Assembly (NCBI GenBank): GCA_000004985.1
Contig: GG738856.1
Reading direction: 5' to 3' (one strand)
Source of the DNA: Naegleria gruberi
Lineage: Eukaryota
DNA: 64,000 nt
Both the position numbers and the translations under genes were made by a program. Each line of letters starts with the position of its first letter. Positions within the stretch are counted from its first letter, which is position 1. The notes beneath the pieces are model-generated. The model made no database searches. It saw only the letters and a list, made by a program, of their open reading frames with translations, and had not been told where the DNA came from. Shown piece by piece: positions 2,196 to 51,244 of the stretch.

Positions 2196-3348
2196 TTACA
2201 AGTTGAGTAAATCAGCTTCTTCCTTAATTCTTCTAGAGAAATCAGCAATGGTAAGAGAAATACCTTCATGCAAGGCAACCTTTGGTGACCAACCAAGTAA
2301 AGTCTTTGCCTTGGTAATGTCTGGTCTTCTGACTTTTGGATCATCTTGTGGAAGTTCGTGGAAAACTAATTGATTTGACTCGGTTGCTCCAATCATTTCT
2401 CTAATCTTTTCAGCCATTTCCAAAACAGTATATTCTTCTGGATTACCAATATTGACAGGTCCAATAGTAACATCTTGATTCATCAAAGTGTGCAATCCTT
2501 CAATTTGATCACTAACATAACAGAATGATCTGGTTTGTTTACCAGTTCCGTAGACAGTGATGTTAATTCCCTTAAGAGCTTGATAAACAAAATTACTAAT
2601 AATACGTCCGTCAGTCAAATTCATTCTAGGTCCATAAGTGTTGAAAATTCTAGCAACACGGACTTGAGTATTCTTGGTTCTATTAAAATCAAAGCAGAGA
2701 GTTTCAGCAGCTCTCTTTCCTTCATCATAACAAGATCTAGTACCAGTACAGTTGACATTTCCCCAATAAGTTTCAACTTGTGGATTAATAGCTGGATCAC
2801 CATAAACTTCACTAGTAGAAGTGATCAACAATCTAGCATTCCACTTTGTAGCAAGAGTGAGGAAATTATATGTTCCTTGAACACAAGTCATTGTTGTATG
2901 AATTGGATCTTTTTGATAATGTGGTGGTGAAGCAGCACAAGCCATGTGATAGATTTGTCCAATACCTTCCAATGATGTAATTCTTTCATCGGAGAGAGCA
3001 TTAATCACATCAGCTTGAATGAAATGTACATTAGGATTTTCAGACAAGTGTTTCAAATTAACCAAACTTCCTGTTTGCAAATTATCAATAACATAGATTT
3101 CATCCTTGTTATCACTCTTTTTCAAAAGGTAATCAACCATATGACTTCCTATTGTATTGGAGGTATAATTTTAATATTATTATTATTGTTGATGATGATG
3201 ATAATTATATATGATGTTCATAAACCATCCACATCCATTATTATTGCAATAAGTAAAATAATATGATGGTAATTCATATTAGTAAACTAATATTGACAAA
3301 ATAATACAAACCAAGGAAGCCAGCACCACCAGTCACTACAATCTTCAT
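2196..3348 (-). CDS. UXS1: UDP-glucuronic acid decarboxylase (UDP-xylose synthase). Two exons: 3348..3312 and 3148..2196.
   Basis: Exon 1 encodes MKIVVTGGAGFLG (the NAD-binding GxxGxxG) and splices in frame to SHMVDYLL. The remainder matches the UXS short-chain dehydrogenase/reductase fold (YDEGKR, NTYGPRM, PDITKAKTLLGW). Confidence 0.85.
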
Positions 3349-3500
3349 TTTTGTTTGTTTTTTTTAATCGTTGTTGCCAATGAGAAACAACTATTTGATT
3401 GGTGAATGGTCAGCTTATTGGATAATTTGTGATATTACATTTTACAAAAGTTAAAGTACACCATGCCAATTATGAAGAGTGGATGTTGAGTTTTGGATTT

Positions 3501-4574
3501 TTAATTGAGAGAAACTTGATAAACATCAAAGTGATGATTTAGCTTTGAATTCTCATGGACGCAGTATTCTTGATTTACCTTATTGATTAGTCCACCAAAA
3601 TTATTTCCACATTCATGTACAAAGTATATTCTTCTAATTCTAGAGTGTAAGAGAGCCATTGCACACATACAGCAAGGTTCATGTGAAATAAATAAATCCA
3701 ATCCTTTGCAGAGGTAGGGAATTTCTGTACTCGGTGTGTTAGGTGGTAGCTTCTCAATTGTCTCTATACAGTATTGGGCAATGACATCCACACCAACAAC
3801 AGCACAGTGCCTCAGTGAGCATTTGAATTTTCCCAAATTTGAAAGAGTACCTTCTGTTTCTGAATAGTAAGGAGAGAAAAATGAATTTTTAGATTCGTCT
3901 AGGAATAATTCATCATGAATACTAGATTTAACAATTGTCTTGGTTTGTGGATTGAAAAATAACCCAGAAACTCGCTTACTCTTTTCAAATGAATCAATTA
4001 CTAGTTTTGTACATGTTTCTACAGATTTCTCATCGTGACTATTTACATTTAGTTCTGCTTTTGGATCTAATTTTGCCAATTGAAGTTCAGTTTCATATAA
4101 ATTAACAGTTTTAAGAGGCCAATATTGAGTATTCCATTCCTTCCACTGATATTTCAATTTAGGTCCATATTTTGGAATTTTAAAAAGTTTCAAAATTTTT
4201 TCTGCTTGTTGATGATCCGAACATTCTAAAATTGTTTTAAAAACATGATTTTCTTTTGTAAGTAATTCATCATCCGAGCTTTGAAAAACATTAGAAATCC
4301 ACCTCTGTAAATTTGTATTTTCATCAGTATCATCATCAATATTCAACAATGGATACAAAACACAATAAGTATCACTTCCAATAGTTTTAATTCTTTTAAT
4401 AAAATCTATATCACGAGCCTCCAATGGAAAATTCTTATTCAAATATTGAATCAAGCCTGAAGTTTTTGATTTATTTTCCACTCTTATCCCGATAATATTA
4501 ATCAACTCCAAATCGGTAATCTTCGGCTTGGTGTAGATGTTTTTAATTGATAACTGTGATGATGAATTTTCCAT
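3501..4574 (-). CDS. tRNA-specific adenosine-34 deaminase, non-catalytic subunit (Tad3/ADAT3-like).
   Basis: The C-terminal cytidine/deoxycytidylate deaminase zinc motifs are H-C-A-V-V (the catalytic Glu is replaced by Val, as in Tad3/ADAT3) and PCCMCAMAL. I place the start at the ATG at 4574. The upstream extension MSCPLHLKKKK in the ORF track reads through the T-run that flanks the retroelement and is probably spurious. Confidence 0.6.
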   Translation of the reverse strand: MENSSSQLSIKNIYTKPKITDLELINIIGIRVENKSKTSGLIQYLNKNFPLEARDIDFIKRIKTIGSDTYCVLYPLLNIDDDTDENTNLQRWISNVFQSSDDELLTKENHVFKTILECSDHQQAEKILKLFKIPKYGPKLKYQWKEWNTQYWPLKTVNLYETELQLAKLDPKAELNVNSHDEKSVETCTKLVIDSFEKSKRVSGLFFNPQTKTIVKSSIHDELFLDESKNSFFSPYYSETEGTLSNLGKFKCSLRHCAVVGVDVIAQYCIETIEKLPPNTPSTEIPYLCKGLDLFISHEPCCMCAMALLHSRIRRIYFVHECGNNFGGLINKVNQEYCVHENSKLNHHFDVYQVSLN

Positions 4575-4582
4575 ATTTTTTT

Positions 4583-4599
4583 TTTTTTTTAAATGCAAT
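4583..4599. repeat. 5' copy of the target-site duplication TTTTTTTTAAATGCAAT.
   Basis: Identical 17-mer recurs at 6013..6029, immediately after the element's 3' end. Confidence 0.55.
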
Positions 4600-6012
4600 G
4601 GGCAAGACAATTAGTAGTTTTATCCATCTAGCAAGAGGAAATTCAATTTCCAATCCTCGCCTACAAACAATTGACTCAACAATAAGGGGTAACCTAAAAA
4701 GATCAATGAAGATCGATGCAAAGGTAAAACCATCCACAATGTATGCACAATTCGAAAGAAAAGGACTAGAAATTCCAAACCTCGAATACATAGCCAACTC
4801 AATCCTTTGCAATAACTTAATCAACAAATTCCACTCAAGTAACCCACTTGTCAGAGAAGCAGTACAGTACGGAATTAATAACTGTAACACGAACAAAACA
4901 AAACTACACAACATATTTGAAAAATTCCACTACATCCTAAAACAACACAAACTTACCACAACAATATGTAACACCAATCATCAACTTCTGGAAAAGGAAA
5001 AAGATGAACAATACTCCTACTCAGAATTCACAATATGGACTGATGGATCCAAATCAGAAAACAAAGTAGGATTCAGTGTAATCATTCAGAACAACGAATT
5101 TACAAAAGGATACAAATACAAGCTCCACTCATACCACTCAAACAACATGGCTGAATTATCAGCAATTACAACAGCACTACACATCATACCACCAAACAGC
5201 AATGCAAAGGTACTCACTGACAGTGAAATAGCAGTCAAAATAATTTACAACACAAATTACAAAGGTCAATTTAAGCAAATCAAAGATGAAATTACCAACC
5301 TCATCAGCACTAAAAAACTTCAAGCATCCATCGAATGGACAAAAGCTCATACAGGAATAACAGATGGAAATAACTACGCTGATAAGAAAGCCAAACAAGC
5401 CTCAAGAATAGGACATCGAATTGCACCCCAACATCTACTAACTCAAGGGCAACTAATTATCACCAATTCGAAAAAAGTTTGGAAAAGTAGAATCAAAGGA
5501 GTACTTAGTGAAAAGCTCTACAATCAAGGAACATCCGAACTCATCAACAGAACAAATCTCAATTACCTCAAAGAACATACCACCCCAACTCACAAATACT
5601 CAATCTGGAGGCTCATGATAAATGGACACTTAAGAAGCCTCATAGTAGACAACCCACAATGCCCAACATGTAACAAAAACCTTGACACAGAACACCTCTT
5701 CATAGAATGCCCAGAAATGAATTCAGCTAGAAACTGGATGATTGAAGAAATCAAAAAAAATACCAATCTCGAACCAGTACTAAGCACAGAGAGGACAGAA
5801 ATATTAACACCAAACTCATTCCAACTGAATATCTTTGGTATTCTGACAGAACCTATTCAAGGTATTATCAAAGAACAATGGCCCAAGATACAAGGAGGCC
5901 TCTCACTTTTTGGAGGAAGAGTACAAAAACAATACAACAAAATCTTAAAAATTCAATAAGACGTTCCAAATGGACGAACCCGTCGGGTTCATTCGATTAA
6001 TAAACGTTTAAA
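4600..6012 (+). mobile_element. 5'-truncated non-LTR (LINE-like) retrotransposon fragment carrying the C-terminal RT tail, an RNase H domain and a Cys/His-rich tail. ORF 4547..5959.
   Basis: RNase H motifs are present (TDGSK, MAELSAITTALH, LTDSEIAV, EWTKAHTGITDGNNYADKKAK), followed by a CPTCNK..H..C zinc-knuckle-like tail. No upstream RT, endonuclease or gag sequence is present. The fragment is flanked by a direct 17-bp duplication, TTTTTTTTAAATGCAAT, and carries a 3'-terminal hairpin. Confidence 0.6.
5976..5990 (+). other. Perfect hairpin GAACCCG-T-CGGGTTC at the 3' end of the retroelement fragment.
   Basis: A 7-bp inverted repeat with a 1-nt loop sits about 25 nt before the element/TSD junction, which is the typical position of a LINE 3'-UTR stem recognised by the reverse transcriptase. 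Confidence 0.4.
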
Positions 6013-6029
6013 TTTTTTTTAAATGCAAT
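6013..6029. repeat. 3' copy of the target-site duplication TTTTTTTTAAATGCAAT.
   Basis: Identical to 4583..4599. Confidence 0.55.
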
Positions 6030-6386
6030 TTCAAAATTTATTTTTTAATCTTTTTGTAAAATATACAACAACAAACTGTAGTGAAAATTGTAAAGATTGC
6101 GACCTGTAATTTGAAAATATGTTCAATCTTGATACAATGTCGGAATTATTGCGCTCAGGAAGGGTAATTTCATTGTTTGACTTTAGATGTGTTCATTGTT
6201 GAAAAAGAGAAATAATTCCACAAACACAACATTTCAGTTCTTGCAAGGAACCATGCATAAGGTTGAGGGAACATATTTGGCACTAACCTGAAACTTCAAT
6301 TCTATTGTTTTTAATGACATTTTGTCCCAGTTGATCTATTTGAAAGACAGATGCAACAATGTTTCTTTCACTCACTTATTCAAAAA

Positions 6387-7648
6387 ATGTCTCAATATAA
6401 CCAATCTTTTACCACTCAACCTGGTTATCCTCAACCAGTTAATGTTCAACCATTGTCTTATAACCCTGCCATTCAACAATTTTCTCAACCACAATATGGT
6501 CAACCAATGAGCCCATCTCTGCAACCAAGTCCATCAACTCCAAATTCTTCTTTCACAAAGCAATCTGGAGGTTCTTTCCACATGCAACAAGATCCAGCTC
6601 TAATTCAATCAAACACACCAAGTCAACCAGTTCTCGAGTGTAAGAATTTGTTACCTTTTATTGTTAATGATAAGCTTGTAAAGAATACTTTTTGGGCAAC
6701 TGGTGGTAATATCCTAATCAAGATATTCATATTTGTTGTCAATAAGTTTATTCTCATGGGTTTAGGTGAAGCTCTGATGGTCAATTACATTACCAGAAGA
6801 GAAGTTAAAAACATGAGAATTGGTAACAGAATGTTGAGCTACAAATCAAGAGGAAACTTCAAGATGGCCCTCCTATGTGTTGTTAATTGGATATTGAACA
6901 TATTCTCATGTGGTTTATTCTACATTCTTGGTTATAGTCATATCATGTACCTTTCTCAACTCGATGCCAGAATTCACTGGGGAAAACCAGCTAAAATTTC
7001 CAAGAAGAGTCAATGAAAGAGGCAATTTGTTGGGAACCAATTGGTAATGGAATGGGTGAATTCAAGATATTTAGTGTATACTTGGGTGTTGGATTTGAAA
7101 TAATGTTCATCATTTTGTATTCACTCAATTTGGTTTCGTTTGGTTTACTTTCTCCACTATTGTACAAGATTTACTTCCCAGCCTACTTTGAGAAGGTTCA
7201 ATTGGGAAAGGGAAGATTTGCAGTCATTCATCCAAAGATGATTTCCTCAATTAATAAGCATGCCAAGAAGAGATCCAAATTGAAGAAGGAAAAAATTGAA
7301 CAACCAACAGAAGTTTATCCATGTGATTATCCAGTTTTAGGTTTTCCACCTCAACCTTCTCATGAAACATACAAACTTAAATTGAAATTTGTTCCAACTT
7401 TTTGTGAGTTGATCAAATTCTTTGTAACGATCAATGTTCTCAGCTTTGTGTCATGTGGATTATTTGTCAAGTGTTGCTTGGCAAATTATGCCAGAAATTA
7501 CATGAATAGAAATATTCATATTGAATTGGAATCAGTTCCATTAGAAGAGCTGCTCAATAATAATAATATCACAGTTTCAAATAATGAGATTGCATTGCAA
7601 CAAGTGACTGTAGTTGAAACTGTTATCATTCAACCTAATCAACAATAA
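6387..7648 (+). CDS. Multi-pass membrane protein with a P/Q/Y-rich N-terminus and two related hydrophobic modules. The reading frame is interrupted by a -1 shift near 6995..7016, from either a sequencing indel or a pseudogene.
   Basis: ORFs 6351..7016 and 7013..7648 overlap by 4 nt in different frames. Both halves have a similar architecture: a hydrophobic helix, a basic loop, then a hydrophobic helix. No GT..AG pair of plausible size could join them. Confidence 0.4.
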
Positions 7649-7693
7649 ATATTACTTCAATTCTTATGAAATGAATTTATTCGATATGTTAAT

Positions 7694-7708
7694 TTTGGCG
7701 CCATTTTG
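7694..7708. promoter_or_regulatory. Palindromic E2F-type site TTTTGGCGCCATTTT, 29 bp upstream of the ORC2 ATG.
   Basis: Near-perfect match to the palindromic TTTGGCGCCAAA consensus in an otherwise AT-rich flank. ORC subunits are classic E2F targets in other eukaryotes. Confidence 0.5.
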
Positions 7709-7736
7709 AAATGTTGAACTTTTTAAAATAAAAAAA

Positions 7737-9087: not shown

Positions 9088-12000
9088 TTATTTGAGTTGT
9101 TTCAAACATTGTTCAATAGTATCCTTAGTCTTACTATTCTTGGTCTTTCTTTGAATGTATTCCAATAATTCAACATCACGAGCTTCAAAGGCAGCTTCAA
9201 CAGCCTCCTTGAATTTAAGTAAATTAATCCAATATTCAACTTTGGTTTCTAATGATTCAATTAGAGGAATGTACTTGAGTGCTTCATCAGATCTATCAGC
9301 TTCCAAACAAGCTTCAACAAATGGAATGTAACCAATTGGTGATTTCTTTGCAGTGGCAAATGTTTCTAATTTCTTCCATTCTCCCAAGAATACCAAAGCT
9401 TTGATTTTAGAATAATAATATCTCTTTGGGGAAACTCCAAAATTCTTTTTCAATACCTTGACAAACTTTTTTCTTTCTCCCTTTTTGGCTTTGAGAGCTT
9501 CACTTGTCATGACTCTGTACAGAGTATCTTGTAATGATGCTCCAACAAATTCTTCATCTGTTTCATCTTCCAATTTCAATTGCAACCCGTAGAGTTCTCT
9601 TTCCTTGACTGCAAACTCGAGGTCAAGCTTATCTGCTGATCTTTCCTTAAAGTAAGTTTCTGCCTTCTCAATATAATAGGCAAATCTCTCCTCTGCCTTA
9701 TCATCAACGGAATCGTAATTCTTATAGGCATGTCTAATTTGTGTAAAACCATTTTCTCTTGAGGCAGCTTCTTCATTTTGTTCATTCTTTAAATACTTGT
9801 AGAATTTTTCTAATTTCTTATACTTTCCAAGTTGTGTACAGTAGGAAATGAAAAGTTTTCTTGCCATCTTCTTGTCAGCAATCAATTCATACATGTAATA
9901 AGCATCAAAGAACTTCATCAAATAGAGTAATACAGTGTAAAGTAGATCAGTATCATTACTCTTTTGTGCCTTGTCTAATGCACTCAATGTCTCATGCATA
10001 GATAAGTAGAGTTTGATTTGAGAGTTAGCATTAGAATCTACTTCAAGGAGAGCCTTAGCTAACTTTGGCTTTTGAACCTTGTAAGCTTCCATGGCAATAT
10101 TTGAAAAACTGACACTTGCTGAGAATTTTTCCAAATTCTTAATAATGATATCCTTGAGTTTCAATTGAGAAGTTTCATTCTTATCTTCAATCTTACTTCT
10201 AATCATGGCTTTGGCCCAATGTTCTAATACTTTGGACTTTGCCAAATTCAAATAGTCACAAACCTTATAGGCCAACAAGTATTCACGCATTTCAGAGAGT
10301 CTCTGTACCAAAACTTGAGGAGAAAGTGAAAGAATTTGTTCATAAGTGATTGGAATTTCACTTCTACTTCTCAGTTCATTCATAAGTCTAATATATTTAC
10401 ATTTCAATTGGAATGCTTTTGCTTCATCAATGGTTGTTCTCATGAAATTCTTTCCATAAATGGCAGCATTTAATAATTGTTCTTGAATGTGAACATCAAA
10501 CTCTCTACAAGCAGCATCAATACACTTATTGACACCATCATACAATGCATCAACACTTTGATCTCCCATTTCCTTGTTTTTAATTTCTCTGATTGTCTTT
10601 AAACAAGTAGCTCTTTCATTGACATAATCAGAATAGGCATCATACAATAAGGCAGCAGGTGACAAGCTACCAATTCTGAAAACTTCAACAACACTTTCAG
10701 GAATACGTTCAATCATTTCTACACTTTGAGTAGTATAGTAACGACAGGAATCTATTTCTTGTGAGACAATGATTGGACCATCATATGTGAATGATTCATA
10801 GTGTCTGAAAATAATGTTATTAAATAAATGAAACAAATTAAACTTACCCAAAACAGTTCACTAATAATACAAGAGATTGATCACCACCTCCAATATTTTC
10901 TGGACTCCAATAGAGCATCATTGATTCACCTCCACAATAGGTTAGGGAATCCAATCGGTGTTCAGTAATTCCAGTGAAGAATTTCAAATAATTTGAAGTC
11001 AGAGCCAAATCAAATACAAATAAATTACCAGAAGCTTGATGGAATGCTGAAATGGTTTTGTAATCAGGTGAAACTGATATTTTAGTGAAACCAGAAGTAT
11101 CTCTTTCTGGAATATCTCCTTTCAATCTTTCATTCAATTTTAAATCCTTATATAAATTCGAATAACATGCAATAATTGACATTCTATCTGGAACTGAGAA
11201 GAGAACAAGTGGACCCTTACCAACTTTGAATGATTTGTTTTCAGCTGGTGCAATAGAAGTATTATTCACAACAGTTCTTTGATTTCTTCTTCCCAATAAA
11301 TTACTGAAAAATCCACCAGATTTCTCATTTGATGAAAGTGAAGGAGCCAAGTTGAGAGTTGGTTTTCTAATTGTTGCTGATCGACTTGTTGTAATTGATT
11401 TAGTATCTTCATCATCGTCCTCTTCTTCCTCTTCCTCTTCTTCATTTTCCTTTTCCTCACCACTCTTTTCATTCATGCTCCTTTTCAAATCATTGACTTT
11501 CTTTTTTCTGACTGTCAAATCAAAATTAGTTACAACAGACATTACAACGTGTGTTAATTCAGCATTATTTCCAACTGCACTCTTTGGGAAAATATATTCA
11601 TGGAAAGGTTTAGTTTCTGATAAATCATATGCTACAAGGAGACGTCTCTTTGATGTGAAAACTACACATCCTTCTCCATAAAATGTGTGAGCTCTAATTT
11701 CTTCTTCTGATTGTAAAGGAATTGAAATAAATGTTGCAGTACTTGAATTAGTATTATTATTATTCGAATCATTTTGATTCTTTTTCATTTTACTTTCCAT
11801 AAGTGGACTATCTTTCTTTTTATCAACGTCATCATTTTGCCATGGTCCTGAATATCTCTCACCATTAAATACATTAAATAATGATAAACGTTTTCTATTA
11901 TTTAAATTGAAAATCATAATTCACACCATCATCATCATCGTCATTAACAATTGATCAAATTTTCATCATCAATTAATACATCCACAACAATAAGATCATC

Positions 12001-20820: not shown

Positions 20821-21951
20821 ATGACACTCACAAATGCTGATACACTACCAATAGTAATGACATTTCTTGATGTAAAATCAGTGATATTATCATGTTCACT
20901 TGTATCTAGAGAGTGGAATCATTTAACAAGATTAAATTCCATATGGAAGTTAAAATATGAACAAATATTCATGGAGAGTGTATTTAATTGGACTAAACAT
21001 GTTACAAATTCTTCTAATGATGATGATGATTCCGATTCTGATTCTGATTCGAAAGATGAATCTTCTGATAATTCATCATCTTCAGAATCGGAAGGAAGAA
21101 AAAGAAAAAAAAGAAAGAAAATTAAAAAGTCAAAGAAACAAAAAACAAGAAAATCCAATCAAGAAGATTACTATTGGTTTAATTTATTTAAAAAATGTAT
21201 ATTACTATTTCCTATTTTAGATATTGAATATGAAAATGTTGAACTACTTGCCAATCAATTAGATTACAATGAAATTAAAAAAATTACAAATGTTCAACAA
21301 TTACATGAAATAATTTACCACTTGAAAGAAACTATTAGAAATCAAGAAAATGGTCAATCTCAACTCACTTCTGATTATCAATATAAATTTCACAACAGTA
21401 AGGCACTAACTCTAAACAAGGAAATGAAAGCTAATTTAATGCAATTAGCAACAATATTAACAGTTTTATATGATGGACAATCAATATTCTATTTTACAGA
21501 TAATGTTTTAATTAGAGTTAAAAAGGAAATGTGGCAATGGGCTCATGAAGATGAAATTGATTGTTTTGAATGTACTTTACCTGCTTTTTGCATGTTGGTT
21601 CTCTATCCTAAAGCTGAAGAAAATATTCCCTTAAAGAAGATGAAGAAAAAGTATCATTTAATGGTATCTCCATCTATAGAAAATCATAAAAGGGAAGAAG
21701 AATCAGACTCAGAATCAGACAATGATGATGAAAAAGAAGGAGGGAGAGTACTCAATACAACAAATTCATGTTTCTGGTTAGATATGATGGGATACTCTGA
21801 ACCTGAAGGAAAGAATGATATTTGTTTTTGTAATTACTTTGATTGGTGTCCAAATTTCATTTCCTCAGAAAATTCAACCAACAATTCTCCAACCATTAAT
21901 ACATCAATGAATACAAAGAAGAGAACTATTCAGATATCAAAGTATGAATAA
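20821..21951 (+). CDS. F-box protein with an acidic/basic low-complexity linker.
   Basis: N-terminal F-box LPIVMTFLDVKSVILSCSLVSREWNHLTRLNSIWK, then a DSDSDS/KRKKRKK stretch. Confidence 0.55.
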   Translation: MTLTNADTLPIVMTFLDVKSVILSCSLVSREWNHLTRLNSIWKLKYEQIFMESVFNWTKHVTNSSNDDDDSDSDSDSKDESSDNSSSSESEGRKRKKRKKIKKSKKQKTRKSNQEDYYWFNLFKKCILLFPILDIEYENVELLANQLDYNEIKKITNVQQLHEIIYHLKETIRNQENGQSQLTSDYQYKFHNSKALTLNKEMKANLMQLATILTVLYDGQSIFYFTDNVLIRVKKEMWQWAHEDEIDCFECTLPAFCMLVLYPKAEENIPLKKMKKKYHLMVSPSIENHKREEESDSESDNDDEKEGGRVLNTTNSCFWLDMMGYSEPEGKNDICFCNYFDWCPNFISSENSTNNSPTINTSMNTKKRTIQISKYE

Positions 21952-32950: not shown

Positions 32951-35900
32951 ATGGCAGAAAAAGAGTTGGATCCAAGATTATTGGATATCATGAAGGAAAC
33001 AGGTACAAATGTGTCCGGTGATGATTTATCTGCTTTGAAGAGTGTGAGTGTTAGGGAATTAATTAAATTGTGGGAAATTTTAGGTCAAACACAAGAACAA
33101 ACTCCAGTTAAAGGTATAACAATGAAATCATCAACAACGGCAACAAAATCAAAGAAGGAAATCTTTGAAGAATGGACAAAGGGTGTAGTTGAAAACTTTA
33201 AAAAGGAGACTGAAAAGAAGGCTGAAAAATCGAGTTCGGGACTAAAGCCTAAAATCATGAATGATGTTGATTATTCAAAGGTTTTAAAAGATGCTAGAGC
33301 AAATCTTAGAAAGAGAATTAATCTTGATGAACAAACAGCAGTTGCTGTTGATTCAAATGATTCAAAGTCTGTTAAGGATTTAACTGCTAAAAGAAAAATT
33401 GAAAATAAGAGTGAAGTTAAACTCAGAACAACTCCTTACTATGAAACTGTACTTAAAAAGAAATCATCTCAAGTAGGAAAACTTGTTAAACCTGCAGTTA
33501 TACCACAAATTGTTAGTGTTTGTGATTCTAGAAGAAAGCCAACAGTCGTTGCTTCAAAACAATTAGGTGCCGATGGATCTGTTTATGTCTTTATTGAAGT
33601 TGCAACAGAACAAGAAATTAGAGATTTACTTTTTGAACAAGGATCCGATAGTACTATTTCTGCTCAAAATATTACAGAACAACCAAATATTCAAAGAATT
33701 ACTTCTGAAGATTTAGAAAGTGTAGTTTATAAGGTTGATCCAGAAAGTATTGGTGAAGGTGGTCAAATTTCATTGAAAGTTCATTATACTGAAGGTGAAA
33801 CTGGTGAAAGAAAGACTGATACTCTCGTTCCAATTCAATTAGGTTTTAATGATACAGTGGAAACTGAACAAAAAGAAACTGGTGAATTTGAAAGTACATG
33901 GTTTAAAACTGGTCAAAAGAATGAAACTAAGGAAACAGTTTCTTTTGAAGCTCCTCTTCAAGAAGCTGTAGATTCATTTATTGAATCAACTGGTCTTTCA
34001 CCAATTTCAGAAGTACAAAGAGATTGTGCTAGTTCTCCAGAGAAGGGAAAACATACCATGCAATTCTTTGCAAAGAAGAATGAGAAACCAATTCTTATCA
34101 AAGTTGTTTTTTCTGAAAAACCAAATGGAACCACAGATGCAATTATTTCTTCTAGATCTGAACTTGAAGCTGCTAAATCAAATACTGTTAAAGGGTTGAA
34201 GAAATATTGGGAATGTTTAAGACAAAACAAAACTGATATTATTAAGGGCCATGGAATTAAAATCAAGATTGAAAAGACTGAAAAGGAAGAACAAGAAAAG
34301 GCTGAAAACTTGAGAATTTCTCGTAAAAAAGAGCAAGAAGAACAAGAAAATCTCAGAAAAGAACAAGAAGAACAAGAACGTTTGAGAAAAGAGAAGGAAG
34401 AAGTGGAAAGAATTAGAAAGGAGCAACAAGAACTTGAAAAGCTCAGAAAGCAACAAGAGCTCGAACGTCAACGTCTTGAAGAAGAGGAAAGACTCAGACA
34501 AGAAGAAGAAGAACGTTTGAGAAAGGAACAAGAAGAACTTGAACGATTCATAAAAGAACAAGAAGAAGCTGAACGAAAGCTCATAGAGGAAGCTGAGGAA
34601 CTCGAAAGACAACGTCTCGAAGAAGAAGAACGTTTAAGAGCAGAAGAACAAGAAAGAATAAGACAAGAGCAAGAAGAGCAAGAACGATTGATCAAAGAAG
34701 CTGAAGAACAAGAAAGACTTCGCTTAGTAGAAGAAGAAAGAATCAGAAAGGAACAAGAAGAACGTGAACGTCAACGCTTAGCTGAAGAAGAACGTTTGAG
34801 AAAGGAACAAGAAGAGTTGGAAAGACAAGAGCAAGAAGAAGAAGAGAGAATTAAGAGAGAAGCTGAAGAGCTCGAACGTCAACATTTGGCTGAAGAGGAA
34901 AGAATCAGACAAGAGCAAGAAAGAATCAGAAAGGAAGAAGAAGAGTTCGAACGTCAACGCTTAGCTGAAGAAGAACGTTTGAGAAAAGAACAAGAAGAGT
35001 TGGAAAGACAAGAGCAAATAAGAATCAGAAAGGAACAAGAAGAGCAAGAACGATTGATCAAAGAGGCTGAAGAACAAGAACGACTTCGCTTAGCTGAAGA
35101 AGAAAGAATCAGAAAGGAACAAGAAGAGCTCGAACGTAAACGTCTTGAAGAAGAGGAAAGATTCAGACAAGAAGAAGAAGAACGTTTGAGAAAGGAACAA
35201 GAAGACCTCGAACGTCAACGTCAAGAAGAAGAAGATAGAATTAAGAGAGAAGCTGAAGAGCAAGAAAGACTCATTCATGCGGCTGAAGAGCAAGAAAAGC
35301 TCAGAATTGAGCAAGAAGAAAGAGATAAAGTCGAAGCTGAACGTCTCAAAATTGAACAAGAAAAGAGAGAAGAAGAAGAACGAATTCTTAAAGCTCAAAA
35401 GGTAATAGATGATAAGAGAAGTGAAAGAAGCCAAAAATTAGTTGACAAGATGGAAGAATTTTGGGCTAGATTTGGAAAACCATTGAAATCTAAAGAATTT
35501 ATGGACACTTTTCCATTCATGATCAAAGTTCATACTCTTAAAGCTCATCAAGCTATTGAAGTTATTGTTTCACCACCACCACCACAAGAAGGAAATACTT
35601 GTTACAAGAATATTAAGGTTTCCGTAAATCCACTTGTTCATACAGGTGTGGTATTGGAATCATTCCAAGTTATTATTGATGATTTATATCCATCAAATAG
35701 TCCATCATCTGCCGCTATTGCATTAAGAAGAAAGGATAATTTCCCAACTGGTGTTATTGGTGAATTGAAAATTGAATTTGATGAAGTTACTTTTGATCCA
35801 TCTAATGATGAAATTGTTGGAGAAGAACAATCAAATGAAGCATCATTTGGTGATATTGATTTCAAATTTGGTGAATTTATTATTAATGATATTGAACATT

Positions 35901-38900
35901 CTGATTTTGATGAATTCAAAGCTTTATGGGCAATTGATAGTTTTGGTGACAAGGTTTTAGGGAATGCTTATTGTAAAACTGAAGATTTCCCACAACCAAT
36001 TGATCTTGTAAAAGCCTATTGTGCATTTAATGACGTTTTACCACTTGTTCATGTTAAAGAAGGAGCTGATGAAGGAACAAGTTACTTTGGATCATCAATG
36101 GATTTTCCATCCGGAGATTCAGTTTACGTTTTATTGAAATGTAATGTTTATGAAGGTGGATTACTTCAACTTAAACTTCAAGCTAAATCTGTTGAAGAAG
36201 AATTTACTGAATCATTTATGAGATCAACATTTGAAGATTTTAAAAAGACAATTAATTGTGTTGAACCACCAGAACCACAAGATAAATCTATTGAATTCAA
36301 AGTTGGTAAACCAATTAAAATTACTCAAAAGAAGTTGATCATTTCTAAACCAATTGATTCTAAAGTACAAGTTGGTGTTACCAAGGCAATTTATCCTAAA
36401 GGTAAATCACTTTTAAAGTATCTTATTAAGAATATTGGTGATGAACCATTATTAGAAGTTAAAATGAAAGCAACAGGTGAAGGATTTGTTGAAACATTTT
36501 CATCTGAAGCCATTTCAATTAATCCAGGTGAAGAAGGTTTAATTTATAAGGTTTATAAATGTGGTGAAGGATCTATTTCATCTGAAATTGAAATTGATGG
36601 AGGTGAAGGTGAAGAATTATTTGATACTTTTATTGGTGAATCAGATACAATGGAAGATTGTTATCCAACTGTTGACTTTTTCCATTCTGAATGGAACAGC
36701 TTGGAAGCACATCATTTTGATGAACACGATCCAATTATTGTTCAAAGTATTGATATTAATGAGATTGTTCAATGTTGTAATGATGCATTCCTTTCTGAGA
36801 AGGCTTTAAATCAACAAGCAGTTGTTGAAAATAATTTGAATTCTCTTAATTATGCTTTCCATTTAAATTCAGGTGAAGAAGCTTTTGTTAAAGTTGGTTT
36901 GGAATTAGTTGGAGATGATCAAATTCAATGTAAAGTTTCATTGAGATCAGAAGATGCAAATGCTGAAAAGTATCATCAATCCCTTGCTAAATCACTTGCT
37001 GTTCAAGCTAAAAAGATTAGTGATTTGAAGAGAATGGCCGAGGAAGCTGCAATCCCTCCAGTCGAAGAGGAAGAAGAGCCAGCTATGCCACCTGTTGAGG
37101 AAGAACCTGCCATTCCTGATGTTGAGGAAGAAGAACCTGCCATTCCACCAGTTGAAGAGGAAGAGGAACCATCTATGCCACCAGAAGAAGAACCTCCAAT
37201 TGATGAAGGAGAACCTATTGAACCACCAGTTGTTGAGGAAGAAGAACCTGCCATTTCACTTGTTGAAGTTGAAGAGGAAGAACCTGCAATTCCACCTGTA
37301 GAAGAGGAAGAAGAACCTGCAATCCCTCCAGTGGAAGGAGAACCAGTTATTCCTCCAGAAGAAGAACCTCCAATTGAGGAAGAATCACCTATTGTTCCTG
37401 AAGAACCACCAGTTGTTGTTGTTGAAGAAAAGAAACCTGAACTTCCACCTCCAATAGTTATTGAAGAAAAGAAGCTAGAACCAGTTAAAGTTATTGAAGA
37501 AAAGAAGCCAGAACCACCTGTAGTTGTTGAAGAAAAGAAACCAGAACCACCTGTAGTTGATGCACCAAAGAAACCAGTTATTGTTGAAGAAGATGTTTTT
37601 GAAGAAGAAGAACGTGTTATTAAGGAAAATGCATTTGATGCAGCCAAATTATCAAATCCATCATGGCTTAAACCAAGATTTAATGTTTCTAATACTCAAG
37701 GATCATCAACAGATAAAAGAATTTGGGAAATTGACTTTTTTGCATCAATATTCCGTGTATTTGATAAGAAGGGTGGTAAATTGAAGAGTACTTATCATGC
37801 TAAAGATTTATATTCACTTGAAAGACATTTTACAGATTCAAGAAGATCAACGTTGAGATTCTTTGGTGATAAGAATCCACATGAATTAGTATTTGAATCA
37901 AATTATCATAGAGAAAGATTTTTTGAATGTTCATCATGTATGAGAAAGAATTTATTTGTTTGGTGTCCATCAGTTTGTGGAGAAGGTCAAACAAAATGTA
38001 TAACAGATATTAAGGGTACATTTATTGCTAAAGAAAATGGTAAACCAACAGAATATAAAGGACAATGTAAAGTTAATGCCTATGCTAAACCATTTGAAAG
38101 TATTAAAGTATTTACAATGACATGGAATATGGGTGGTAAAAAGGCTCCAAAAGATCCTAAAGAATTACAAGATTTATTAATACCTGGTAAATATGATTTA
38201 TATGCCATTGCTACACAAGAAACAGGTTTTCCTAAAGATGTTAACAAATTCAAAGCCTATGTTGAAAATTGTTTAGGTGATAAGTATATTGTATTAACAT
38301 GTATGACAATGTGGGAAATTCAATTAGTTGTATTATCAAAGAAATCACATTTTTTAAAAATATCAAATATTCAAGGTGTACAAAAAGCAACTGGTTTAGG
38401 TAAATTAGCAGCTAATAAGGGTGGTGTTGGTATTTCTCTATGTTTTAATAATACACCAATGTTATTCATTTCTGCTCATTTAGCAGCTAATCATGGTGAA
38501 AATCATGAAGATAATGATTCTTTAAATTTGAGAAATCAAAATGCAAGAGAAATTATTGATGCAATGGCAATTGGTAATCCAACTATGGATATTGGTGGTC
38601 AATTTGATTATATATTCTTTATGGGTGATACAAATTATAGAGTACAATTACCATATGATCAAGCTGTTGGATTAGCAAAGAATAAGCAATATGATGAATT
38701 ATTGAAATTTGATCAACTTCGTATGCAACAAAAACAAGGTGTTGCTTTTTATGGATTTAAAGAAAGTGCTATTAAATTTCCACCAACATATAAATATAAG
38801 GCAGGTACATTAGAATTTGATACTAAAAAGAAGAGAACACCATCTTATACTGATAGAATTTTATTTAAAACATTCCCTGCTTCACAAATTGTTGCTGAAA

Positions 38901-39481
38901 AATATACTGCTAAATATCCAGAATGTAAACATCCATCTGATCACTTACCTGTACAATGTATTTTCAAAATTCCAACTCATAGACCTTTTGTTTCTGTATT
39001 TACAAGTGATTCTCAATTCACATGTCAAATTATTTTTGATTCAATTATTTGTAAATTAGCTGTTAGAGAAGATTTAAAGAATCCATCTGTTACTTTCTAT
39101 GCTCCATGGTTAGATAGTAATGAAAAGGGTGAATATCCAATCACTTCACCAATTCCAAATACAAGAAAACCAGAATGGAGTGGTTCTTTAATACCAACTT
39201 TAACTCCTGCAACTTCTGATATGGTATTTTTAAGATTACAACATATTGCCTTGACTATTAGACAAGGAAAACCTGATATCAAGACTGGTATTGACAATCT
39301 TATTGGTACTGTTGTACTTCCATTACAAAATGCTGTACTTAAGAGTCCTGATGTACATCAATTTAAGGCACCAATTAATGCTCAAGGTGGTTTAGCTGCT
39401 GGTATTATGGAAGGAAGTTATCGTATTGTTTATAAGAAGGAAGATTTGAGTCAAAAGTTAATGAATGTTGAAATTGAATAA
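32951..39481 (+). CDS. Inositol polyphosphate 5-phosphatase (IPPc domain at about nt 38100..38980) with a 1,750-aa N-terminal extension. Single 2176-aa ORF.
   Basis: Catalytic motifs are present: FTMTWNMGG, YAIATQE, FISAHLAANHGENHEDN, FFMGDTNYR, PPTYKYK, PSYTDRILF and SDHLPVQCIF. Upstream are ER/K-type charged repeats (34300..35440), PEVK-like P/V/E repeats (37040..37600) and a PH-like segment (FFGDKNPHELVFESNYHRERFFE). Confidence 0.8.
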   Translation: MAEKELDPRLLDIMKETGTNVSGDDLSALKSVSVRELIKLWEILGQTQEQTPVKGITMKSSTTATKSKKEIFEEWTKGVVENFKKETEKKAEKSSSGLKPKIMNDVDYSKVLKDARANLRKRINLDEQTAVAVDSNDSKSVKDLTAKRKIENKSEVKLRTTPYYETVLKKKSSQVGKLVKPAVIPQIVSVCDSRRKPTVVASKQLGADGSVYVFIEVATEQEIRDLLFEQGSDSTISAQNITEQPNIQRITSEDLESVVYKVDPESIGEGGQISLKVHYTEGETGERKTDTLVPIQLGFNDTVETEQKETGEFESTWFKTGQKNETKETVSFEAPLQEAVDSFIESTGLSPISEVQRDCASSPEKGKHTMQFFAKKNEKPILIKVVFSEKPNGTTDAIISSRSELEAAKSNTVKGLKKYWECLRQNKTDIIKGHGIKIKIEKTEKEEQEKAENLRISRKKEQEEQENLRKEQEEQERLRKEKEEVERIRKEQQELEKLRKQQELERQRLEEEERLRQEEEERLRKEQEELERFIKEQEEAERKLIEEAEELERQRLEEEERLRAEEQERIRQEQEEQERLIKEAEEQERLRLVEEERIRKEQEERERQRLAEEERLRKEQEELERQEQEEEERIKREAEELERQHLAEEERIRQEQERIRKEEEEFERQRLAEEERLRKEQEELERQEQIRIRKEQEEQERLIKEAEEQERLRLAEEERIRKEQEELERKRLEEEERFRQEEEERLRKEQEDLERQRQEEEDRIKREAEEQERLIHAAEEQEKLRIEQEERDKVEAERLKIEQEKREEEERILKAQKVIDDKRSERSQKLVDKMEEFWARFGKPLKSKEFMDTFPFMIKVHTLKAHQAIEVIVSPPPPQEGNTCYKNIKVSVNPLVHTGVVLESFQVIIDDLYPSNSPSSAAIALRRKDNFPTGVIGELKIEFDEVTFDPSNDEIVGEEQSNEASFGDIDFKFGEFIINDIEHSDFDEFKALWAIDSFGDKVLGNAYCKTEDFPQPIDLVKAYCAFNDVLPLVHVKEGADEGTSYFGSSMDFPSGDSVYVLLKCNVYEGGLLQLKLQAKSVEEEFTESFMRSTFEDFKKTINCVEPPEPQDKSIEFKVGKPIKITQKKLIISKPIDSKVQVGVTKAIYPKGKSLLKYLIKNIGDEPLLEVKMKATGEGFVETFSSEAISINPGEEGLIYKVYKCGEGSISSEIEIDGGEGEELFDTFIGESDTMEDCYPTVDFFHSEWNSLEAHHFDEHDPIIVQSIDINEIVQCCNDAFLSEKALNQQAVVENNLNSLNYAFHLNSGEEAFVKVGLELVGDDQIQCKVSLRSEDANAEKYHQSLAKSLAVQAKKISDLKRMAEEAAIPPVEEEEEPAMPPVEEEPAIPDVEEEEPAIPPVEEEEEPSMPPEEEPPIDEGEPIEPPVVEEEEPAISLVEVEEEEPAIPPVEEEEEPAIPPVEGEPVIPPEEEPPIEEESPIVPEEPPVVVVEEKKPELPPPIVIEEKKLEPVKVIEEKKPEPPVVVEEKKPEPPVVDAPKKPVIVEEDVFEEEERVIKENAFDAAKLSNPSWLKPRFNVSNTQGSSTDKRIWEIDFFASIFRVFDKKGGKLKSTYHAKDLYSLERHFTDSRRSTLRFFGDKNPHELVFESNYHRERFFECSSCMRKNLFVWCPSVCGEGQTKCITDIKGTFIAKENGKPTEYKGQCKVNAYAKPFESIKVFTMTWNMGGKKAPKDPKELQDLLIPGKYDLYAIATQETGFPKDVNKFKAYVENCLGDKYIVLTCMTMWEIQLVVLSKKSHFLKISNIQGVQKATGLGKLAANKGGVGISLCFNNTPMLFISAHLAANHGENHEDNDSLNLRNQNAREIIDAMAIGNPTMDIGGQFDYIFFMGDTNYRVQLPYDQAVGLAKNKQYDELLKFDQLRMQQKQGVAFYGFKESAIKFPPTYKYKAGTLEFDTKKKRTPSYTDRILFKTFPASQIVAEKYTAKYPECKHPSDHLPVQCIFKIPTHRPFVSVFTSDSQFTCQIIFDSIICKLAVREDLKNPSVTFYAPWLDSNEKGEYPITSPIPNTRKPEWSGSLIPTLTPATSDMVFLRLQHIALTIRQGKPDIKTGIDNLIGTVVLPLQNAVLKSPDVHQFKAPINAQGGLAAGIMEGSYRIVYKKEDLSQKLMNVEIE
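34300..35440 (+). repeat. In-frame coding tandem repeats giving about 370 aa of EEERLRKEQEELERQ-type charged heptad/undecad units (ER/K single-alpha-helix or coiled-coil type).
   Basis: Visible GAA/GAG-AGA-AAG periodicity. The antisense frames give spurious F/L/S ORFs (34217..34612-, 35090..35434-). Confidence 0.7.
37040..37600 (+). repeat. In-frame coding tandem repeats: PAIPPVEEEEE-type units (about 9 copies), then EKKPEPPVVVE units (5 copies). PEVK-like.
   Basis: Direct reading of the translated ORF. The antisense frame yields a spurious GSSS-rich ORF 37003..37647-. Confidence 0.7.
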
Positions 39482-46681: not shown

Positions 46682-47483
46682 ATGACCAACGATAAAATAT
46701 CAACTACAACAACAACACCTTCATCATCTGATCAACAAGAAGAAGAACAACAACATCACTCCGATGCTTCTTCTTCTTCTTCATCATCATTATCTGATAG
46801 TAGTGATCATGAAGATGAAAATACAACAATAACATCATCATCTAATAATAATAATAATTCTAATTCTTCTAATAATAATAATAATAATAAATTATCAAAA
46901 TATTCACAAAGATTATTTAATTTACAATTAAGAATGAATCAAGCTAAACAAGATAATATAGAACAATTAAAAGAAGAAGAAGAAGAATTAGATTATAAAA
47001 AGAAAGTTTATTATAAACATAAAAATATAATTGAAAATGAAATGATGACACATATAAATGTAACATTGAATGAATCTCTAGAATTTGAGAAGAAGAGAAA
47101 ACGTTCACAAAAAGAACAACCACAAGGATGGGAATCTTTAAATTCAAATGCATTATATAAACAACATAAAAAGAGAATTAAACAAAATATTACAAATACT
47201 AATAATAATATTACAAATACAAATACAAATATTAATGAATCAACATTAGATAATAATTTATTATCATATGGATCAACTATTAATAATAATAATTTAATAA
47301 CAGAAGAGAATAAACAAGTAATGGTAAATGAATTGACACAAAAAAAGAAATCAAATAAAAAGAAGAAGAATGATGAAGATTCAGATGAAACTGTATTATA
47401 TATTAATAATACTAACAAACATTTTACAAAATCTCTAAGTAAAGCCTATGATAATATACTGATGATATTAGATCTAATTTAGA
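46682..47483 (+). CDS. SYF2-like pre-mRNA splicing factor. The 3' end probably continues into the assembly gap.
   Basis: An acidic Ser-rich N-terminus, a central coiled helix (SKYSQRLFNLQLRMNQAKQDNIEQLKEEEEE), then ETVLYINNTNKHFTKSLSKAYD, which resembles the SYF2 C-terminal block (YINERNKHFNKKLARAYDKYT). The apparent stop lies 1 nt before the N-run. Confidence 0.4.
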
Positions 47484-50400
47484 NNNNNNNNNNNNNNNNN
47501 NNNNNNNNNNNNNNNNNNNNNNNNNNNNNNNNNNNNNNNNNNNNNNNNNNNNNNNNNNNNNNNNNNNNNNNNNNNNNNNNNNNNNNNNNNNNNNNNNNNN
47601 NNNNNNNNNNNNNNNNNNNNNNNNNNNNNNNNNNNNNNNNNNNNNNNNNNNNNNNNNNNNNNNNNNNNNNNNNNNNNNNNNNNNNNNNNNNNNNNNNNNN
47701 NNNNNNNNNNNNNNNNNNNNNNNNNNNNNNNNNNNNNNNNNNNNNNNNNNNNNNNNNNNNNNNNNNNNNNNNNNNNNNNNNNNNNNNNNNNNNNNNNNNN
47801 NNNNNNNNNNNNNNNNNNNNNNNNNNNNNNNNNNNNNNNNNNNNNNNNNNNNNNNNNNNNNNNNNNNNNNNNNNNNNNNNNNNNNNNNNNNNNNNNNNNN
47901 NNNNNNNNNNNNNNNNNNNNNNNNNNNNNNNNNNNNNNNNNNNNNNNNNNNNNNNNNNNNNNNNNNNNNNNNNNNNNNNNNNNNNNNNNNNNNNNNNNNN
48001 NNNNNNNNNNNNNNNNNNNNNNNNNNNNNNNNNNNNNNNNNNNNNNNNNNNNNNNNNNNNNNNNNNNNNNNNNNNNNNNNNNNNNNNNNNNNNNNNNNNN
48101 NNNNNNNNNNNNNNNNNNNNNNNNNNNNNNNNNNNNNNNNNNNNNNNNNNNNNNNNNNNNNNNNNNNNNNNNNNNNNNNNNNNNNNNNNNNNNNNNNNNN
48201 NNNNNNNNNNNNNNNNNNNNNNNNNNNNNNNNNNNNNNNNNNNNNNNNNNNNNNNNNNNNNNNNNNNNNNNNNNNNNNNNNNNNNNNNNNNNNNNNNNNN
48301 NNNNNNNNNNNNNNNNNNNNNNNNNNNNNNNNNNNNNNNNNNNNNNNNNNNNNNNNNNNNNNNNNNNNNNNNNNNNNNNNNNNNNNNNNNNNNNNNNNNN
48401 NNNNNNNNNNNNNNNNNNNNNNNNNNNNNNNNNNNNNNNNNNNNNNNNNNNNNNNNNNNNNNNNNNNNNNNNNNNNNNNNNNNNNNNNNNNNNNNNNNNN
48501 NNNNNNNNNNNNNNNNNNNNNNNNNNNNNNNNNNNNNNNNNNNNNNNNNNNNNNNNNNNNNNNNNNNNNNNNNNNNNNNNNNNNNNNNNNNNNNNNNNNN
48601 NNNNNNNNNNNNNNNNNNNNNNNNNNNNNNNNNNNNNNNNNNNNNNNNNNNNNNNNNNNNNNNNNNNNNNNNNNNNNNNNNNNNNNNNNNNNNNNNNNNN
48701 NNNNNNNNNNNNNNNNNNNNNNNNNNNNNNNNNNNNNNNNNNNNNNNNNNNNNNNNNNNNNNNNNNNNNNNNNNNNNNNNNNNNNNNNNNNNNNNNNNNN
48801 NNNNNNNNNNNNNNNNNNNNNNNNNNNNNNNNNNNNNNNNNNNNNNNNNNNNNNNNNNNNNNNNNNNNNNNNNNNNNNNNNNNNNNNNNNNNNNNNNNNN
48901 NNNNNNNNNNNNNNNNNNNNNNNNNNNNNNNNNNNNNNNNNNNNNNNNNNNNNNNNNNNNNNNNNNNNNNNNNNNNNNNNNNNNNNNNNNNNNNNNNNNN
49001 NNNNNNNNNNNNNNNNNNNNNNNNNNNNNNNNNNNNNNNNNNNNNNNNNNNNNNNNNNNNNNNNNNNNNNNNNNNNNNNNNNNNNNNNNNNNNNNNNNNN
49101 NNNNNNNNNNNNNNNNNNNNNNNNNNNNNNNNNNNNNNNNNNNNNNNNNNNNNNNNNNNNNNNNNNNNNNNNNNNNNNNNNNNNNNNNNNNNNNNNNNNN
49201 NNNNNNNNNNNNNNNNNNNNNNNNNNNNNNNNNNNNNNNNNNNNNNNNNNNNNNNNNNNNNNNNNNNNNNNNNNNNNNNNNNNNNNNNNNNNNNNNNNNN
49301 NNNNNNNNNNNNNNNNNNNNNNNNNNNNNNNNNNNNNNNNNNNNNNNNNNNNNNNNNNNNNNNNNNNNNNNNNNNNNNNNNNNNNNNNNNNNNNNNNNNN
49401 NNNNNNNNNNNNNNNNNNNNNNNNNNNNNNNNNNNNNNNNNNNNNNNNNNNNNNNNNNNNNNNNNNNNNNNNNNNNNNNNNNNNNNNNNNNNNNNNNNNN
49501 NNNNNNNNNNNNNNNNNNNNNNNNNNNNNNNNNNNNNNNNNNNNNNNNNNNNNNNNNNNNNNNNNNNNNNNNNNNNNNNNNNNNNNNNNNNNNNNNNNNN
49601 NNNNNNNNNNNNNNNNNNNNNNNNNNNNNNNNNNNNNNNNNNNNNNNNNNNNNNNNNNNNNNNNNNNNNNNNNNNNNNNNNNNNNNNNNNNNNNNNNNNN
49701 NNNNNNNNNNNNNNNNNNNNNNNNNNNNNNNNNNNNNNNNNNNNNNNNNNNNNNNNNNNNNNNNNNNNNNNNNNNNNNNNNNNNNNNNNNNNNNNNNNNN
49801 NNNNNNNNNNNNNNNNNNNNNNNNNNNNNNNNNNNNNNNNNNNNNNNNNNNNNNNNNNNNNNNNNNNNNNNNNNNNNNNNNNNNNNNNNNNNNNNNNNNN
49901 NNNNNNNNNNNNNNNNNNNNNNNNNNNNNNNNNNNNNNNNNNNNNNNNNNNNNNNNNNNNNNNNNNNNNNNNNNNNNNNNNNNNNNNNNNNNNNNNNNNN
50001 NNNNNNNNNNNNNNNNNNNNNNNNNNNNNNNNNNNNNNNNNNNNNNNNNNNNNNNNNNNNNNNNNNNNNNNNNNNNNNNNNNNNNNNNNNNNNNNNNNNN
50101 NNNNNNNNNNNNNNNNNNNNNNNNNNNNNNNNNNNNNNNNNNNNNNNNNNNNNNNNNNNNNNNNNNNNNNNNNNNNNNNNNNNNNNNNNNNNNNNNNNNN
50201 NNNNNNNNNNNNNNNNNNNNNNNNNNNNNNNNNNNNNNNNNNNNNNNNNNNNNNNNNNNNNNNNNNNNNNNNNNNNNNNNNNNNNNNNNNNNNNNNNNNN
50301 NNNNNNNNNNNNNNNNNNNNNNNNNNNNNNNNNNNNNNNNNNNNNNNNNNNNNNNNNNNNNNNNNNNNNNNNNNNNNNNNNNNNNNNNNNNNNNNNNNNN

Positions 50401-51244
50401 NNNNNNNNNNNNNNNNNNNNNNNNNNNNNNNNNNNNNNNNNNNNNNNNNNNNNNNNNNNNNNNNNNNNNNNNNNNNNNNNNNNNNNNNNNNNNNNNNNNN
50501 NNNNNNNNNNNNNNNNNNNNNNNNNNNNNNNNNNNNNNNNNNNNNNNNNNNNNNNNNNNNNNNNNNNNNNNNNNNNNNNNNNNNNNNNNNNNNNNNNNNN
50601 NNNNNNNNNNNNNNNNNNNNNNNNNNNNNNNNNNNNNNNNNNNNNNNNNNNNNNNNNNNNNNNNNNNNNNNNNNNNNNNNNNNNNNNNNNNNNNNNNNNN
50701 NNNNNNNNNNNNNNNNNNNNNNNNNNNNNNNNNNNNNNNNNNNNNNNNNNNNNNNNNNNNNNNNNNNNNNNNNNNNNNNNNNNNNNNNNNNNNNNNNNNN
50801 NNNNNNNNNNNNNNNNNNNNNNNNNNNNNNNNNNNNNNNNNNNNNNNNNNNNNNNNNNNNNNNNNNNNNNNNNNNNNNNNNNNNNNNNNNNNNNNNNNNN
50901 NNNNNNNNNNNNNNNNNNNNNNNNNNNNNNNNNNNNNNNNNNNNNNNNNNNNNNNNNNNNNNNNNNNNNNNNNNNNNNNNNNNNNNNNNNNNNNNNNNNN
51001 NNNNNNNNNNNNNNNNNNNNNNNNNNNNNNNNNNNNNNNNNNNNNNNNNNNNNNNNNNNNNNNNNNNNNNNNNNNNNNNNNNNNNNNNNNNNNNNNNNNN
51101 NNNNNNNNNNNNNNNNNNNNNNNNNNNNNNNNNNNNNNNNNNNNNNNNNNNNNNNNNNNNNNNNNNNNNNNNNNNNNNNNNNNNNNNNNNNNNNNNNNNN
51201 NNNNNNNNNNNNNNNNNNNNNNNNNNNNNNNNNNNNNNNNNNNN
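47484..51244. other. Assembly gap of 3761 N.
   Basis: Poly-N run. The ORF-track entries 47424..51269 and 47479..51249 are translations of N and are meaningless. Confidence 1.

Follow-up and report, generated by a model that had tools for sequence, protein, structure and literature searches.

A 5'-truncated LINE fragment lies directly upstream of a Tad3-like gene in Naegleria gruberi, in the 64-kb stretch of contig GG738856.1 (assembly GCA_000004985.1; 64,000 nucleotides, hereafter the window) that was analyzed here, and the same site is empty in a related strain. With high confidence, we attribute this arrangement to a member of a heterolobosean LINE family, encoding an APE endonuclease, a reverse transcriptase (RT), an RNase H and a CCHC motif, that inserted by target-primed reverse transcription (TPRT) into the A/T run preceding the Tad3 start codon. 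The copy at 4600-6012 was dead on arrival, being truncated at its 5' end and devoid of both the endonuclease and the RT core. The insertion is young, as indicated by its identical flanking repeats, its unbroken open reading frame (ORF) and the empty site in a strain that is 1.4-3.6% divergent; it postdates, or segregates within, a lineage of that divergence. The features discussed below are as follows.

3501-4574, minus strand: Tad3/ADAT3-like deaminase gene, 357 aa, with its ATG at 4574
4583-4599, plus strand: left (5') copy of the target-site duplication (TSD), TTTTTTTTAAATGCAAT; an exact repeat, present as a single T8 copy in the empty allele L003
4600-6012, plus strand: 5'-truncated non-LTR (LINE) fragment, 1,413 bp, missing from the related strain (L003)
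4601-5959, plus strand: ORF2 remnant (post-RT region, RNase H and CCHC tail), 452 codons plus stop, unbroken
5024-5404, plus strand: RNase H domain (Pfam PF00075, E 3.7e-17, aa 142-268)
5660-5710, plus strand: CCHC zinc-knuckle-like motif, C-P-x-C-x7-H-x4-C, from the family alignment and a weak Pfam zf-RVT match
5976-5990, plus strand: 3' UTR stem-loop GAACCC-GUC-GGGUUC, ending 22 nt before the element end
5991-6012, plus strand: conserved 3' terminal tail ...GATTAATAAACGTTTAAA, without poly(A), from the alignment of the window, L002 and L013
6013-6029, plus strand: right (3') TSD copy, with T8; an exact repeat that matches the L003 junction
6030-6350, no strand assigned: remaining original Tad3 upstream intergenic region, which adjoins the Tad3 ATG in L003 and is now 1.43 kb away

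The target-site duplication and the empty allele

The 17-mer TTTTTTTTAAATGCAAT occurs in exactly two copies in the 64-kb window, at 4583-4599 and 6013-6029, and a third site is absent even when up to 2 mismatches are allowed. The remaining exact 17-mer pairs that were inspected (<3 kb apart) fell within AAT microsatellites, low-complexity tracts rich in A and T, or coding sequence with internal repeats. The initial annotation had proposed that this pair is a TSD, on the understanding that a common low-complexity motif would speak against it. Uniqueness in the window, together with the empty allele described next, rules out a low-complexity coincidence.

A search for Tad3 homologues returned a near-identical Logan protein, P0188, encoded on contig L003 (run ERR1078381). 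This contig matches the flanks of the element with 98.6% identity to window positions 2460-4583 and 96.4% to 6012-7555, and it skips 4600-6012 altogether. Its junction reads ...TTTTCCAT-A-TTTTTTTT-AAATGCAAT-TTCAAAATTT..., or CCAT-A-T8-AAATGCAAT-TTCAAAA in short form, and holds the 17-mer once. Since the empty allele carries a single 17-mer, the repeat is a true target-site duplication, a conclusion that goes beyond statistics. The comparison with a related strain suggested in the initial annotation thereby bore out both the duplication and its placement of the insertion directly upstream of the minus-strand ATG, the empty site being contiguous in L003. No mention of accession ERR1078381 was found in the literature searched.

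At the empty site, the 17 bp that became duplicated starts 2 nt from the Tad3 ATG, which would place the first nick essentially at the start codon. The left edge of the duplication is blurred in the window, since the T run of the left copy comprises 15 T (4576-4590) versus 8 T in the right copy and in the empty allele. This 7-nt homopolymer expansion affects one side only. The seven extra T probably arose through slippage, either in the fill-in of the gap or in later replication; a simple TPRT model does not predict them, and they count as a point against it.

The Tad3-like gene and its displaced upstream region

Homologues of the gene are named tRNA-specific adenosine deaminase 3. In the Tad3-like ORF, the PCxxC motif (HEPCCMC) is conserved, the equivalent of the HAE motif is HC followed by A, S or V, and the catalytic Glu is absent; the Pfam dCMP_cyt_deam_1 match, at 24.3 bits, lies just below the cut-off. 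The ORF is intact and differs from that of the empty-site strain by five synonymous codons and one non-synonymous codon, so that the window and Logan proteins are one residue apart. Look-ups of the exact sequences of the window Tad3 and ORC2 ORFs gave no match. There was likewise no N. gruberi protein among the matches of the Tad3 homologue search, and the public annotation of this genome may lack the gene.

Only 25 bp of native sequence is left upstream of the Tad3 ATG in the window, and these bases themselves hold the duplicated target. In the empty N. gruberi allele, the Tad3 upstream intergenic region measures 350 bp. A 26-bp indel, TGAAAATATGTTCAATCTTGATACAA, is located at 6112-6137 inside the displaced upstream region, being present in the window and not in L003. 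In N. fowleri, N. lovaniensis and the metagenomic contig L004, Tad3 and ORC2 are divergent, their coding regions lying 32-142 bp apart; every one of these Tad3 orthologues has an A run adjoining its ATG, and no element is found at the 5' end of Tad3. Because the intergenic regions of these relatives are so short and carry an A run at the ATG, the retained 25 native bp might still hold the Tad3 start site. The view of the initial annotation that the gene must now be transcribed from or through the element is therefore not supported in that strict form. If, instead, Tad3 transcription starts more than ~60 nt upstream, a 12-codon, element-derived upstream ORF, ATGGATAAAACTACTAATTGTCTTGCCCATTGCATTTAA, would precede the ATG. 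The upstream ORF extension reported initially (MSCPLHLKKKK) begins at a TTG, accepted as a start in a list of ORFs made with the bacterial table, and is meaningless in a eukaryotic gene.

The fragment is the C-terminal third of a LINE ORF2

The ORF at 4601-5959 has no ATG at its start. An exhaustive HMMER search with this ORF recovered 1,080 relatives. Among the long ones, the best are P0004 from N. fowleri (1152 aa), P0008 from Logan (1213 aa) and P0023 from Willaertia magna (1218 aa); the names of the more distant matches gave no help in assigning a clade. The last ~450 residues of these three proteins align to the entire window ORF, which corresponds to the C-terminal third of 1,150-1,220-aa proteins; specifically, aa 2-445 align to residues 637-1097 of P0004 and 761-1207 of P0008. 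All three contain RVT_1 and RNase_H domains. Exo_endo_phos is found at the N-terminus of P0008 and P0023, with Exo_endo_phos_2 also matched, and the N. fowleri members of the cluster carry the name endonuclease/exonuclease/phosphatase. The RT of P0004 matches the solved structures of R2 and human L1 ORF2p. The ~140 N-terminal residues of the window ORF align just past the RVT_1 domain of the full-length relatives, the fragment beginning ~44 residues after that match ends. The initial reading of the fragment as a 5'-truncated LINE is thus supported both by its homology to full-length ORF2 proteins and by the empty allele.

The domains that the initial annotation had read from the plus strand, a post-RT region followed by an RNase H and a Cys-rich tail, were recovered by the alignment to the full-length relatives, the Pfam RNase_H match and the CCHC motif, and the RNase H is intact. 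The RNase H catalytic residues D148, E185, D207 and D261 are invariant in a three-sequence alignment, and three of the four are still nearly invariant when the family alignment is extended to 13 sequences. Across the same 13 members, C354, C357, H365 and C370 of the CCHC motif are nearly invariant; the zf-RVT Pfam match over this motif in the window ORF is weak. The coding region is followed by a 3' UTR of 53 nt.

A word-indexed homologue search with the LINE ORF yielded two proteins with the single sequence and seven with the alignment. Searching contigs with an alignment of the ORF returned only distant RNase H matches from JGI metagenomes, and no further junctions. There is no second copy of the 4600-6012 element within the 64-kb window, and neither a full-length copy nor a second copy of the subfamily from N. 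gruberi itself was retrieved in the homologue searches. The annotated N. gruberi LINE proteins are only ~30% identical. Both observations weigh against the proposed origin of the fragment.

A stem-loop and a fixed tail at the 3' end

The hairpin GAACCCG-T-CGGGTTC noted initially at the 3' end is present, and as RNA it folds into a 6-bp stem with a 3-nt loop (-15.5 kcal/mol, z -2.0). Two other copies, L002 and L013, retain the window stem with a change from G-C to G-U, which fits pairing in the sense RNA given that this change keeps the stem. In L001 and L007, different hairpins occupy the equivalent distance, 19-23 nt from the terminus. The fold z-scores are modest, at about -2 in three copies and about -0.3 in L007.

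Poly(A) is missing at all of the ends (...AAACGTTTAAA, ...AAACATCAAA, ...TAATAAAAG), and the 3' end of L001 reads ...TTTAATAAACATCAAA. In the window, the element terminates in ...AAACGTTTAAA and the duplication then opens with T8 on the sense strand; a T run also starts the adjoining sequence in L001, L007 and L013. The RT probably recognizes the 3' stem-loop.

Other copies of the family and their target sites

A copy in N. lovaniensis (L001) is flanked by TTTTTTTCTGTTGGTT at 9549-9564 and 11292-11307, a 16-bp TSD that extends into the start codon of an SNF2-family gene in divergent orientation. Positions 10001-11245 (C9374_014533), annotated as a hypothetical protein or 'ribonuclease H', are in fact part of this LINE copy, which is truncated at its 5' end; similarity to LINE ORF2 runs upstream of this gene model to position 9566. 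A copy on Logan contig L007 is flanked by ATTTTTTAGTGCTAAAT at 3659-3675 and 5239-5255, a 17-bp TSD, and lies 65 nt upstream of the ATG of a divergent gene. The duplications of the window, L001 and L007 are thus 16-17 bp long, and each opens with a T run. The 5' truncation points vary, mapping to P0004 residue 636 in the window, P0004 residue 542 in L001 and P0008 residue 713 in L007, and the 3' region is common to all.

Two more 3' junctions were found, in which the element is followed by T10 (L013) or TATTTT (L002). A recognizable duplication was looked for at the flanks of L002 and none was found; its 5' end probably reflects a collapsed or chimeric metagenome contig.

The divergent, start-proximal position of the three copies with defined TSDs is suggestive. 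All three (3/3) are found 0-82 nt upstream of the ATG of a gene that points away from them. A tentative and rather unlikely proposal is that this Naegleria/Willaertia LINE family is a start-codon-proximal integrator, which would target the A-rich leader at start codons through a preferred A-run-T motif, AAAAAAAT^G, that makes up the leader or Kozak context in many Naegleria genes, insert divergently and, by way of its 16-17-bp TSD, keep the minimal promoter, leader or initiator of the gene. If true, the position at Tad3 would reflect a property of the element instead of an accident, and this could explain the tolerance of insertions 0-25 bp from an ATG in a genome where intergenic regions can be as short as 32 bp. 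The A run at the ATG of each Tad3 orthologue and the tiny intergenic regions are in agreement with such targeting. A count of A6+T sites over window positions 1-44 kb found 6 so placed and oriented, from 20 non-coding and 40 in total; against these backgrounds, the chance of 3/3 is ~0.003 (all sites) to 0.03 (non-coding null), with n = 3. However, an A run stands at the first ATG in only 5 of 22 long window ORFs, and a plain preference for A runs combined with selection against coding insertions may suffice to produce the same pattern.

Proposed insertion mechanism and alternatives

In the proposed mechanism, the endonuclease would nick the A-run strand (the sense strand of Tad3) at 5'-AAAAAAAA(T)^ATG; the site presumed to be nicked at the Tad3 start lies between AAAAAAAAT and ATG. 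The first nick would accordingly follow an A run and its T on the strand complementary to the element sense strand. We infer both the strand and the position of this nick from the junctions. The freed 3' end would then prime cDNA synthesis on an element RNA ending in the stem-loop and ...UUUAAA, without poly(A), with little or no annealing between primer and template. Reverse transcription would halt early, so that the last 1.41 kb alone is copied, and a second nick 16-17 bp away (17 bp here) would generate the duplication.

An older insertion, with the empty allele arising as a later precise deletion by recombination between the 17-bp repeats, is in our view very improbable. A 17-bp direct repeat could in principle drive such a deletion, and the T8 of the empty allele equals that of the right-hand copy. 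The 452-codon ORF is, on the other hand, unbroken and the repeats are otherwise identical, both of which point to youth, and the Tad3 5' ends of N. fowleri, N. lovaniensis and L004 are free of the element. Precise loss of LINE insertions is also rare, which counts against this explanation.

Less probable still, and effectively ruled out, is that the ORF belongs to a cellular or domesticated RNase H/zinc-finger gene: the catalytic residues are conserved, the N. lovaniensis homologue is annotated as a 'ribonuclease H' and ORFs are intact in four truncated copies (window, L001, L002 and L007), but such ORFs are expected from discovery via protein databases (L008 and L009 are frameshifted), the window ORF lacks a starting ATG, every copy sits at a different locus with its own TSD, of the two strains compared, one has the window copy and the other lacks it, and homology runs upstream into the C-terminal part of the RT in the longer truncated copies L001 and L002 and on to the APE-RT-RNase H proteins. 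The ORF is therefore retroelement-derived, and the initial concern that the region might match a cellular gene did not materialize. Recent TPRT by a LINE at the Tad3 start codon remains the reading that we favor.

Comparison with known LINEs

The domain order APE-RT-RNase H-Cys/His of the full-length relatives is common to the RNase H-bearing APE clades of LINEs (I, Ingi/L1Tc, Tad1, LOA and Nimb), in which variable 5' truncation and TSDs are seen as they are in the copies of this family. By its architecture alone, with an RNase H after the RT, the family resembles the I/Ingi/Tad1 group, a placement that we regard as favored rather than established. Ingi/L1Tc elements are also from Discoba; ingi TSDs are 12 bp long, in contrast to the 16-17-bp duplications with a T-run start described here.

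Likeness to L1 extends to an APE-type endonuclease, a nick at a homopolymeric A/T tract, frequent 5' truncation, TSDs of ~15-17 bp and the match of the P0004 RT to the L1 ORF2p structure. The window family differs from L1, however, in the absence of poly(A) and the presence of an RNase H, a 3' stem-loop and a fixed tail. Furthermore, its TSD starts with T on the element sense strand; the 3' end exposed by the nick therefore consists of A residues with no more than a single T, to which poly(A) could not anneal. Neither the A-rich tail nor the TTTT/AA-type priming nick that mark the L1 clade is found in the window family.

Stringent-type LINEs such as UnaL2 of eel (L2 clade) are recognized through a 3' stem-loop; the present family resembles them in having a conserved 3' UTR hairpin at a fixed short distance from the 3' end, kept through a G-C to G-U change. 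The stringent-type LINEs belong to another clade with another domain content, and the role of the hairpin in the present family is putative. The TRE5 and TRE3 elements of Dictyostelium are similar in their narrow, gene-adjacent insertion zone within a gene-dense genome with few transposons. Their targets are tRNA genes, whereas here they are A-run starts of protein-coding genes at three loci, for which a simple sequence preference may be the explanation.

Transposon content in Naegleria is reported to be very low, 0.13-0.28% (bioRxiv 10.64898/2026.06.24.734286). The literature searched covered this overall content only; LINE families of the genus, the sites that they target and the start sites of Naegleria transcripts were not described in it. 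Overall, the window element is an ordinary APE-type LINE insertion from a family that is undescribed in the literature searched and may exist in Repbase.

The surrounding sequence

The gene between the LINE and ORC2, at 6351-7648, has no Pfam match; its product is rich in Q and P at the N-terminus and contains hydrophobic segments. The window splits it between two ORFs that overlap (6351-7016 and 7013-7648). An additional 7 nt is present in L003 at ~7009-7013, where the gene reads through as a single ORF of at least 392 aa, which argues that the window copy is either a frameshifted pseudogene or an assembly error. This gene is part of ~1.7 kb of extra sequence between Tad3 and ORC2 in N. gruberi (6030-7736), including the empty-site strain, relative to N. 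fowleri, N. lovaniensis and a metagenomic relative (L004, L005 and L006), in which the two genes abut. The extra 1.7 kb represents a lineage-specific gene gain or loss.

Further along, the ORF at 20821-21948 is identical to N. gruberi EFC46964.1, which assigns the window to this species. The window is AT-rich, with a GC content of ~0.3, falling below that to ~0.22 in a stretch at 44-56 kb that includes two runs of N (assembly gaps) at 47484-51244 and 53065-53947; the ORFs listed over 47424-51269 are artefacts of an N run. Internally repetitive coding stretches occur at 34350-35250, 37120-37530 and 60330-62100, and long ORFs contain many exact 17-mer repeats, as exemplified by the 2176-aa ORF at 32951-39481.

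Implications

The correct annotation of the 4600-6012 segment is a transposon remnant, not a 'ribonuclease H' gene as in the N. lovaniensis homologue. It provides a dated, strain-polymorphic insertion in N. gruberi, whose genome is reported to be very transposon-poor. Together with two other loci, the window gives a hint that the family may prefer A runs at start codons as its targets. For the host gene, which is probably essential, the two alleles constitute a natural experiment in which one Tad3 has 1.4 kb of foreign sequence 25 bp away from its ATG and the other has none, and which could gauge the minimal promoter and leader that a Naegleria gene requires.
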